IMG/VR virus record: IMGVR_UViG_3300032227_000993
Length of the DNA stretch: 64,000 nucleotides
Strand: one strand, 5' to 3'
Origin: a virus
Taxonomy: Duplodnaviria > Caudoviricetes
Shown here in pieces: positions 52,666 through 53,732 of the stretch; the stretch's first letter is position 1, and each line of letters starts with the position of its first letter. A program made the position numbers and the translations under genes. A model generated the notes under the pieces. The model saw only the letters and a program-made list of their open reading frames with translations. It made no database searches and had not been told where the DNA came from.

Positions 52666-53517
52666 ATGAGTTCAAACAATCCATTAAAACAGTATTTTAG
52701 ACAGCCGTCTATCTACATCAAGCTACCTAGCGGTGGTGGTTTTTACCCTACTGGCGCAATAGAACTGACTGCAAACAGCGAATATCCAGTGTATCCAATG
52801 ACTGCCATTGACGAAATTACCTATCGCACACCGGATGCTTTATTCAACGGTGAAGCTGTTGTTACAGTTATCCAAAGTTGTGTACCCAATATTAAAAATG
52901 CCTGGGCATTACCCAGTATTGATTTAGACACTATTTTGACTGCTATTCGCATTGCCAGTTACGGGCATCAAATGGAATTTGAAACTCGTTGTCCTAGTTG
53001 TACACACGAAGAAGGTCGTACTTTAGACTTGCGCACAGTCATGGATATGCTTAGAGCACCTGACTACAGTAAAAGTGTCAAACAAGGTGACATTGAAATT
53101 TTCTTCAAGCCAATGACCTACAAAAATTTAACTGATAACAACAAAGCGCAATACGAAGAACAGCGTATTCTAAATCAGTTGATACCTGATGGTGAAACGC
53201 CTGAGGATATTGAAAAAGCCAGAAATATCAGTTACACAGAAGTACTTAAAAAAATTACACAGATCACAGTAAGTGCCCTGTCTCAAAGTATTGCTACAAT
53301 TAAAACTCCCACAGCGCAGGTAACAGAGCCAGAATTTATTACTGAGTTTTTGAGCAACTGCGATCGTTCGTTGTTTGGTCAAATTCGCGACTACATCATT
53401 GATACAAAAAATGTAGCCGAATTACAACCGTTGACTATCAAGTGTACCGAATGTAATTTTGAATACAAACAAGCGGTCACGCTGAACATGACTGATTTTT
53501 TCGCGGACGCCTCCTAG
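52666..53517 (+). CDS. gp26: Baseplate hub assembly protein / tail chaperone
   Basis: NPLKQYFRQP.IYIKLPS.G.FYP, PMTAIDEI, IDLD.IL.AIRIASYG and CxxC motifs. Confidence 0.85.
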   Translation: MSSNNPLKQYFRQPSIYIKLPSGGGFYPTGAIELTANSEYPVYPMTAIDEITYRTPDALFNGEAVVTVIQSCVPNIKNAWALPSIDLDTILTAIRIASYGHQMEFETRCPSCTHEEGRTLDLRTVMDMLRAPDYSKSVKQGDIEIFFKPMTYKNLTDNNKAQYEEQRILNQLIPDGETPEDIEKARNISYTEVLKKITQITVSALSQSIATIKTPTAQVTEPEFITEFLSNCDRSLFGQIRDYIIDTKNVAELQPLTIKCTECNFEYKQAVTLNMTDFFADAS

Positions 53518-53555
53518 CCCTATCTCCTGAAAACATCGAGCGTTGGCTTGATGAA

Positions 53556-53732
53556 ATGGAGAAGGAAACAAACGATATTAGGCAGGAGGCATTGCGATTA
53601 GCTTGGTATATGCGTGGTGGTTTAACTTACGAACAGGCTTTGCATCTCAGTTACGCTGAACGCAAAATTATCAACGATATCGTAAAAGAAAACATGGAAA
53701 CAACCAAAAAATCAGGATTGCCTTTCTTCTAA
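53556..53732 (+). CDS. gp51: gp51-like hub chaperone, 58 aa from ATG (not in the ORF track); frame open from 53496
   Basis: MEKETNDIRQEALRLAWYMRGGLTYEQALHLSYAERKIINDIVKENMETTKKSGLPFF; sits directly after gp26. Confidence 0.65.
   Translation: MEKETNDIRQEALRLAWYMRGGLTYEQALHLSYAERKIINDIVKENMETTKKSGLPFF

Follow-up and report, generated by a model that had tools for sequence, protein, structure and literature searches.

We analysed a 64,000-nucleotide stretch of DNA from a virus of the Caudoviricetes (Duplodnaviria; IMG/VR record IMGVR_UViG_3300032227_000993), below referred to in its full length as the window, which carries a gene related to gene 26 of bacteriophage T4 with a candidate -1 frameshift site at its 3' end. 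The gp26-like open reading frame (ORF) occupies positions 52666-53517 on the plus strand and encodes 283 amino acids. Its product matches the Pfam family PF12322 (T4_baseplate) with 57 bits (cut-off 24.5; E = 2.8e-15) over profile positions 42-219 of 219, as well as the family phrog_150 'baseplate hub' (E = 1.1e-15). The ORF ends with ATG ACT GAT TTT TTC GCG GAC GCC TCC TAG and thereby contains the heptamer T_TTT_TTC (53496-53502, plus strand), which stands in the X_XXY_YYZ register relative to the 0 frame, i.e., GA[T TTT TTC]. The 0-frame stop TAG (53515-53517, plus strand) follows four codons past the heptamer, a distance that ranges from 1 to 10 codons among relatives, and the -1 frame is shut by a TGA (53493-53495) immediately 5' of the T6 run. 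Read from 53502, the -1 frame translates as RGRLLALSPENIERWLDEMEKE... GLPFF, an extension of 76 codons plus the stop TAA at 53730-53732 (53502-53732, plus strand). Conceptual translation predicts products of 283 amino acids (0 frame) and of 355 amino acids (-1 fusion, residues 1-279 plus 76), the latter with the junction peptide ...MTDFF/RGR.... An initial annotation of this stretch had given the same heptamer with the TGA directly before it, the same frame coordinates, both product sizes and the junction peptide, and all of these are correct as judged from the sequence, the ORF list and the translation. The earliest ATG, GTG or TTG in the -1 frame is the ATG at 53556-53558 (plus strand), which encodes residue 19 of the extension and is an internal methionine rather than a conserved start. 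It lies 39 nucleotides (nt) beyond the 0-frame stop, starting there would drop 18 conserved residues, and no Shine-Dalgarno-like GGAG or GAGG was seen in the 15 nt upstream of it. A promoter and terminator scan around the locus gave nothing informative. The DNA of the window is present in freshwater or lake metagenome runs.

Relatives of the locus were gathered by a scan of IMG/VR, which yielded 431 related stretches, 80 loci of which with 51-88% protein identity were kept, and by tblastn with the hub protein, which returned 96 phage records, all from jumbo phages. The eight cultured jumbo phages examined were Atu_ph07, Phosso, RaK2, PA5oct, 121Q, GAP32, SCTP-2 and Xoo-sp13. A blastn search of the locus against phage records gave no match, and the DNA is thus too diverged for a nucleotide comparison. 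The 74 distinct homologues from both sources group into 34 clusters when cut at 70% identity and into 8 at 55%. The motif T_TTT_TTY is found in register in 73 of them, at protein identities down to 26% and up to 88%: 72 carry TTTTTTC, one TTTTTTT and one TTTTTCC, with the register kept in every case. The codon 5' of the two phenylalanines is AGT, AAT, GAT, CAT, GCT or CGT, so that the residue varies (D, N, S, H, A, R) with a T at the third base throughout. Elsewhere in these genes, phenylalanine is encoded by TTT in 68% of cases and the third base is T in 31%. Given a conserved x-Phe-Phe and the codon usage of the genes themselves, the heptamer is expected in ~7% of independent lineages, and its presence in 73 of 74 homologues is therefore beyond chance. 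The hub genes of Atu_ph07 and Phosso, for example, both end with CAT TTT TTC, one codon and the stop. A single relative, locus L070, has a broken heptamer (T_TTT_TCC, 2313-2319) next to an intact -1 ORF, which could be a sequencing error or mark a lineage with reduced slippage. At L070, a strong local hairpin begins right after the site.

From the heptamer on, no stop interrupts the -1 frame for 70-79 codons at every locus, within an overall range of 58-79 codons, and its residues are conserved from the very first codon (R-x-R-L-L). Counted from residue 1, the extension is 76 amino acids long in 54 of 54 distinct homologues, with a mean column identity of 69% and with the motifs R-x-R-L-L, W-Y-M-R-G-G, S-x-x-E-R and T-T-K-K; it is predicted to form a helical tail. 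A tblastn search with the 76-residue product matched the Agrobacterium phage Atu_ph07 and the Sinorhizobium phage Phosso over residues 1-76 each, so that the match starts right at the slip site. Column entropy at -1 codon positions 1, 2 and 3 amounts to 1.19, 0.83 and 1.60 in the stretch from the 0-frame stop to the ATG at 53556, and downstream of this ATG the same pattern is seen (0.94, 0.61 and 1.38). The stretch upstream of the ATG thus carries, at the level of sequence, the signature of a translated -1 frame and of purifying selection on the -1 ORF. No consistent start accompanies this ORF: the first possible start ranges from -20 to +36 codons around the slip site among relatives, PA5oct has zero start codons across its 73 -1-frame codons, and 9 of 56 sequences have leucine in place of Met19 of the window. 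Among the more than 3000 metagenomic homologues of the small ORF, gene callers give lengths of 58-100 amino acids, a spread that arises because the ORF lacks a real start. No family in PHROGs or Pfam describes the 76-residue tail; its sole Pfam match, TetR_C_28 (E = 0.057), is at chance level and was rejected. The two features on which the initial annotation turned are hence both retained in homologues, namely the heptamer and an open -1 frame. The annotation had also named initiation at ATG 53556 only as what would speak against it, and the sequences point the other way, as conservation and coding periodicity start at the heptamer and the ATG is not conserved.

Downstream of the heptamer, RNA folding and an alignment of 56 distinct sequences (alignment A1) indicate a predicted stem. 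A spacer of 6 nt (53503-53508, plus strand; columns 8-13 of the alignment and the fold of 53503-53600) separates the heptamer from the core of this stem, which agrees with the ~5-9 nt of canonical -1 sites. Its 5' arm, GCCUCCU, a bulged A and GCC (53509-53519, plus strand), doubles as the R-L-L codons in the -1 frame and as A-S-stop in the 0 frame, and its 3' arm, GGC plus AGGAGGC (53581-53590, plus strand), lies within the extension codons I-R-Q-E-A. In the core, 53509-53515 pair with 53584-53590 and 53517-53519 with 53581-53583. The segment 53503-53600 folds with a minimum free energy of -38.1 kcal/mol (z = -5.55 against dinucleotide shuffles). Across the alignment, 46 of 56 sequences offer the 5' arm a pairing partner further downstream. 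Two mutually exclusive partners occur: columns 13-20 pair with columns 89-96 (stem A, at least 7 of 8 pairs) in 30 sequences, while the partner lies at columns 68-74 (stem B, at least 6 of 7 pairs) in 16. At columns 19/90, 20 sequences have a C-G pair and 11 a U-A pair, and neither exchange alters the amino acid encoded in the -1 frame (Leu CUA/UUA on one side, Gln CAG/CAA or Arg CGG/CGA on the other). Such compensatory swaps recur in separate subclades, as between loci L026 and L030. Moreover, for 71% of 66 sequences, duplexes between the arm and downstream sequence are better than in codon shuffles (p <= 0.05), and Atu_ph07 and Phosso are among these despite their different arm sequences.

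Proteins in which body and tail are joined in a single ORF occur naturally. When 1.84 billion representative proteins were searched with the tail profile, 443 matched; among the best 150 of these, 19 are single ORFs of 319-351 amino acids with the whole tail at the C-terminus. In an uncultured clade represented by loci L094 and L095, a short PF12322 gene (287-294 amino acids) is followed in tandem by a long one (L094: short 820-1704, long 1704-2744; L095: short 3588-4451, long 4454-5449). The short gene of L094 ends with TCT TTT TTC AAT GAC TAA, a relic heptamer whose -1 frame ends one codon on, and in the short gene of L095 the heptamer is lost. The 60-kb contig GCA_015689235.1 encodes the same long-form protein as L095, and its tandem pair lies beside an 829-residue tape-measure-like gene and a portal gene, a neighbourhood as in the window. 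The portal gene of this contig holds an intein (Portal_T4 - Intein_splicing - Portal_T4). Aligned with the natural long forms, the conceptual 355-residue fusion gives one high-scoring segment pair over residues 10-355 (E = 2e-63 to 3e-40), which passes the junction gap-free with DFFRGRLLALSPENI opposite ELFRNKILTMNEEEI. The fused reading thus corresponds to a real protein architecture. AlphaFold2 confidently modelled a natural long form with a predicted local distance difference test (pLDDT) score of 89.1 and a predicted template modelling score of 0.82, its tail comprising four helices, and the short form of the window with a pLDDT of 88.9. A Foldseek search of the long-form model against the PDB gave no match at E <= 0.001, and a wide search with VIA-align reached a best Z of 6.0 with small helical domains (RecQL4 N-terminal domain, GINS), i.e., the background of helical models. 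Without a convincing relative in these fold searches, structure speaks neither for nor against kinship with lambda-type chaperones.

The relation of the two predicted products to T4 gp26 and gp51 becomes clear at the level of profiles. In T4, gp26 (residues 1-206 of 208) and gp51 (residues 1-201 of 249) each span the whole PF12322 profile, which identifies them as paralogues, with gp51 consisting of the domain and a tail of ~48 amino acids. Two CxxC pairs of the 0-frame product, C109/C112 and C260/C263, are invariant in an alignment of 48 sequences, and their counterparts in T4 gp26 are CTCG and CPEC. A profile of the conceptual fusions aligns end to end with a gp51 profile, and in this alignment the slip site is placed opposite the end of gp26 and the beginning of the gp51 tail. 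When the tail was compared with T4 gp51 by pairwise BLASTP, the match (E = 0.067) lay in the wrong region and was discarded; profiles are needed for this comparison. The initial annotation had called the downstream ORF 'gp51', which cannot be upheld: the ORF is equivalent only to the C-terminal tail, about the last 50 of the 249 amino acids of gp51. Since gp26 and gp51 are full-length paralogues of PF12322, the fusion rather than the small ORF would be the gp51 equivalent, and the comparison supports assignment of the 0-frame product as a probable gp26 equivalent and of the whole fusion as a probable gp51 equivalent. In T4 itself, gene 26 lies on the minus strand, with gene 25 coming after it, next to gene 51 on the plus strand, and due to their divergent transcription gene 26 cannot be fused to gene 51. 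T4 gp26 ends with ...EFFELL, in which Phe-Phe is encoded by TTC TTT and is not slippery. Both T4 proteins are described as baseplate hub assembly chaperones (PMC3004832), and gp51 is absent from the T4 particle (Leiman et al. 2010, PMC3004832).

T4, our positive control, contains two PF12322 genes. A single one each was found in the complete genomes of Atu_ph07, RaK2 and PA5oct, in a 98%-complete IMG/VR genome of 340 kb, and in the cyanophages S-WAM1 and S-SSM6a, Aeromonas phage Aeh1 and Pseudomonas phage Cygsa01. The arrangement of the window extends beyond jumbo phages. In S-WAM1, S-SSM6a and Aeh1, the PF12322 gene ends with NNT TTT TTC, one codon and the stop, the heptamer is followed by a -1 ORF of 58-66 codons, and the encoded tails match the gp51 tail profile with E values of 4e-9 to 6e-7. 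No joined, frameshifted coding sequence is annotated in any record examined.

Taken together, the heptamer, the conservation of the -1 frame, the covarying stem, the single gene copy in relatives and the natural long forms strongly support the programmed -1 frameshift proposed in the initial annotation. We consider it very probable from these comparisons that the gp26-like gene of this uncultured giant T4-like phage is recoded by a stem-stimulated -1 ribosomal frameshift on U_UUU_UUC, which would yield two forms, a short one like gp26 and a long one like gp51. Most ribosomes would read 52666-53517 and release the short form of 283 amino acids. A fraction would pause over the stem that starts 6 nt past the heptamer, and the two tRNA-Phe on UUU-UUC would re-pair one base back on U_UUU_UU. 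The shifted ribosomes would then read the -1 frame to 53732 and produce the long form of 355 amino acids, i.e., the body with the 76-residue helical tail. The ratio of short to long form would be set by the efficiency of frameshifting instead of by two genes. That the slippage takes place on the ribosome is what we infer from sequence comparison.

Several observations weigh against this interpretation. The stem encloses a loop of ~60 nt, and classical stimulators are more compact. Both stem A and stem B are missing from 7 of 56 sequences, and the kinship of the sequences inflates the significance of the shuffle controls for covariation. Homology between the jumbo-type tail and the gp51 tail is moderately supported (hhalign P = 8e-5 to 1.2e-4, probability 55-61%), and the natural long forms have no recorded match to PF28602, a newer Pfam family that marks gp51 homologues. 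An ATG lies across or right next to the 0-frame stop in Atu_ph07, Phosso and 121Q. Finally, the heptamer is missing from the pf16-like Pseudomonas phage Cygsa01 (AGC ATT TTC ACC TAA); its tail ORF (L092, 2109-2282), annotated as 'baseplate hub assembly catalyst', begins at an ATG overlapping the stop (TAATG), so that this phage may produce the tail as a free protein of 57 amino acids. The position of the ATG at the stop in Atu_ph07, Phosso, 121Q and Cygsa01 suggests that a free tail by translational coupling is possible in some lineages.

These start codons, together with the missing heptamer of Cygsa01, also argue for a separate small gene, from which a free protein of 58 amino acids would be made from ATG 53556 or by termination-reinitiation and no recoding would occur. 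Most database annotations assume as much, with separate genes in 121Q, GAP32, SCTP-2, Xoo-sp13, Phosso, S-SSM6a and Cygsa01. For the window we nevertheless regard this as improbable. Its nearest start lies well past the stop, has no Shine-Dalgarno motif and forfeits the 18 conserved residues, conservation and coding periodicity already begin at the heptamer, start positions vary among relatives down to none in PA5oct, and the natural long forms are single ORFs. Moreover, a separate gene leaves the invariant NNT TTT TTC and the covarying stem unexplained.

The same two proteins would result from transcriptional slippage, in which a polymerase stuttering on the T6 run adds one U and brings the tail in frame. 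A homopolymer run is indeed present at the shift site, and the extra U would give an identical long form, yet we judge this very unlikely. Known bacterial and phage sites of this kind usually need runs of ~8-9 or more, for which T6 is short. Furthermore, the codon register, the pyrimidine at position 7 and a stem at the spacing of ribosomal -1 sites are irrelevant to a polymerase. A functionless by-product, in which a conserved Phe-Phe coincides with an assembly error or a decaying gene fusion, is scarcely credible even though Phe-Phe is kept in T4 gp26 with the codons TTC TTT, L070 reads T_TTT_TCC and the short paralogue of L094 keeps its heptamer with a -1 frame shut after one codon: the same arrangement recurs in isolates independent of one another and, across different studies, in hundreds of metagenome contigs, a breadth of conservation that excludes chance or artefact, the third-base T precedes Phe-Phe across six codons with the exact order TTT TTC in 72 of 74 homologues, and the -1 ORF bears the marks of purifying selection.

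The gp26-like gene is embedded in a T4-like structural module, with a portal gene at 46563-48392, a prohead protease gene at 44647-45300 and a major capsid gene at 42318-43514. Directly adjacent on the minus strand, the ORF list gives a tape-measure-like protein of 700 amino acids with a putative peptidase- or endolysin-like C-terminus (50537-52639), which shows a weak match to the endolysin family phrog_894 over residues 537-588; the corresponding slot in RaK2, PA5oct, 121Q and L095 holds a tape-measure-like or virion structural protein. A second tape-measure-like protein of 699 amino acids (48432-50531, minus strand) ends with a tail lysozyme domain (PF18013 Phage_lysozyme2, E = 4.7e-24) and matches the tape measure family phrog_9570 (E = 6.7e-13). 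Both are 73% identical over their first 475 amino acids and have unrelated C-termini; two tape-measure variants with different wall-degrading heads in one phage are unusual. The gp26-like gene is divergent from the adjacent tape-measure-like gene in the window and likewise in RaK2, PA5oct, 121Q and L095. A complex prediction of the gp26-like protein with residues 1-480 of a tape-measure-like protein scored 0.00, which is evidence neither way. Further along the window, a homing endonuclease gene (41427-42200, minus strand; phrog_655, E = 1.6e-51) adjoins the major capsid gene. A 557-residue ORF (38263-39936, minus strand) matches only positions 350-828 of the 1190-position DNA polymerase profile phrog_405 and may represent part of a polymerase gene that is split. 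On the other side, a 366-residue ORF (55909-57009, minus strand) with an N-terminal C-x3-C-x2-C cluster resembles a radical SAM enzyme, and the same-strand ORFs after it may be putative modification enzymes.

Based on the short/long architecture, the tape-measure-like neighbours and the literature on T4 gp26 and gp51 as hub chaperones, we infer by analogy that the pair would act on hub or tape-measure assembly as lambda G/GT does on the tape measure. Tentatively, and with somewhat more doubt than conviction, we further suggest that the gp26/gp51 family could be the missing G/GT counterpart of the T4-like superfamily, here comprising the jumbo RaK2/Atu_ph07-like phages, the cyanophages and Aeh1. 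A frameshift in one gene would then be the usual state, and the pairs of T4 and of the tandem clade would represent its resolution by duplication. A literature search, with most subscription journals outside its reach, found no paper reporting a frameshift in the gp26/gp51 family. To our knowledge, no short/long tail-chaperone frameshift has been described for T4-like phages. The type of frameshift itself is known; what would be new is a -1 frameshift that gives the short and the long form of a tail-assembly protein from an unrelated family, within a T4-like lineage. T4 gp26 and gp51 are poorly understood, and a pair made from one gene would make their function testable in cultured phages. A conserved frameshift would also explain why most T4-like genomes seem to be without a full-length gp51, and it would correct the annotation of thousands of small orphan ORFs as well as of the cyanophage 'gp51' genes. 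Frameshift, tandem duplicates and divergent duplicates would thus be three evolutionary solutions to one stoichiometry problem.

Compared with T4, the window encodes proteins of the same family in a short form (gp26 with 208 amino acids in T4) and a long form (gp51 with 249 amino acids), close to a tape-measure gene in both cases. Unlike in T4, which has two divergent paralogous genes and no slippery site, one gene is proposed to give both forms in the window, and both the body (279 versus ~205 amino acids) and the tail (76 versus ~48 amino acids) are longer. Also similar in layout are the ORFs annotated as 'gp51 baseplate hub assembly catalyst' in cyanophages and pf16-like phages. These comprise 57-66 codons in the -1 frame directly after gp26 and match the T4 gp51 tail, and S-WAM1 and S-SSM6a share T_TTT_TTC with the window. 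They differ in being annotated as separate genes and in having tails of the T4 gp51 type, whereas the tail of the window is of the W-Y-M-R-G-G type, common to Atu_ph07 and Xoo-sp13; Cygsa01 differs from the window additionally by the lack of the heptamer.

Lambda-, P2- and Mu-like phages are characterised by short and long tail chaperones made by programmed frameshifting, and E/E+E' of P2 is another tail-gene -1 frameshift pair. In chaperones of the lambda type, the tape measure is bound by both forms, the long form recruits the tube protein with its tail, and neither form is part of the virion. For lambda gpG/gpGT, a conserved -1 frameshift of the tail assembly chaperone genes was reportedly described by Xu, Hendrix and Duda in 2004. 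The initial annotation had likened the window to lambda G/GT, and of this likeness the architecture stands: a -1 shift near the 3' end of a tail-assembly gene would lead to a short and a C-terminally extended form, the tape-measure gene is adjacent, and neither of the T4 counterparts is known for certain to be part of the virion. A relation in sequence or fold to G/GT was not found, with no tail-assembly-chaperone family of Pfam matched by the 0-frame or tail products. Also unlike lambda, the gene of the window is divergent from the tape-measure-like genes instead of lying between the major tail gene and the tape-measure gene, directly upstream of the latter on the same strand, and its heptamer is U_UUU_UUC instead of G_GGA_AAG. 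The E. coli dnaX gene (tau/gamma) differs from the window in that the shifted product is the shorter one and in that an upstream Shine-Dalgarno-like element, none of which was seen at the site of the window, contributes; furthermore, the stem of the window closes a much larger loop. Both systems have in common an X_XXY_YYZ heptamer, a short spacer, a stable stem and two products, predicted in the case of the window, that share their N-terminus and are made at a set ratio.

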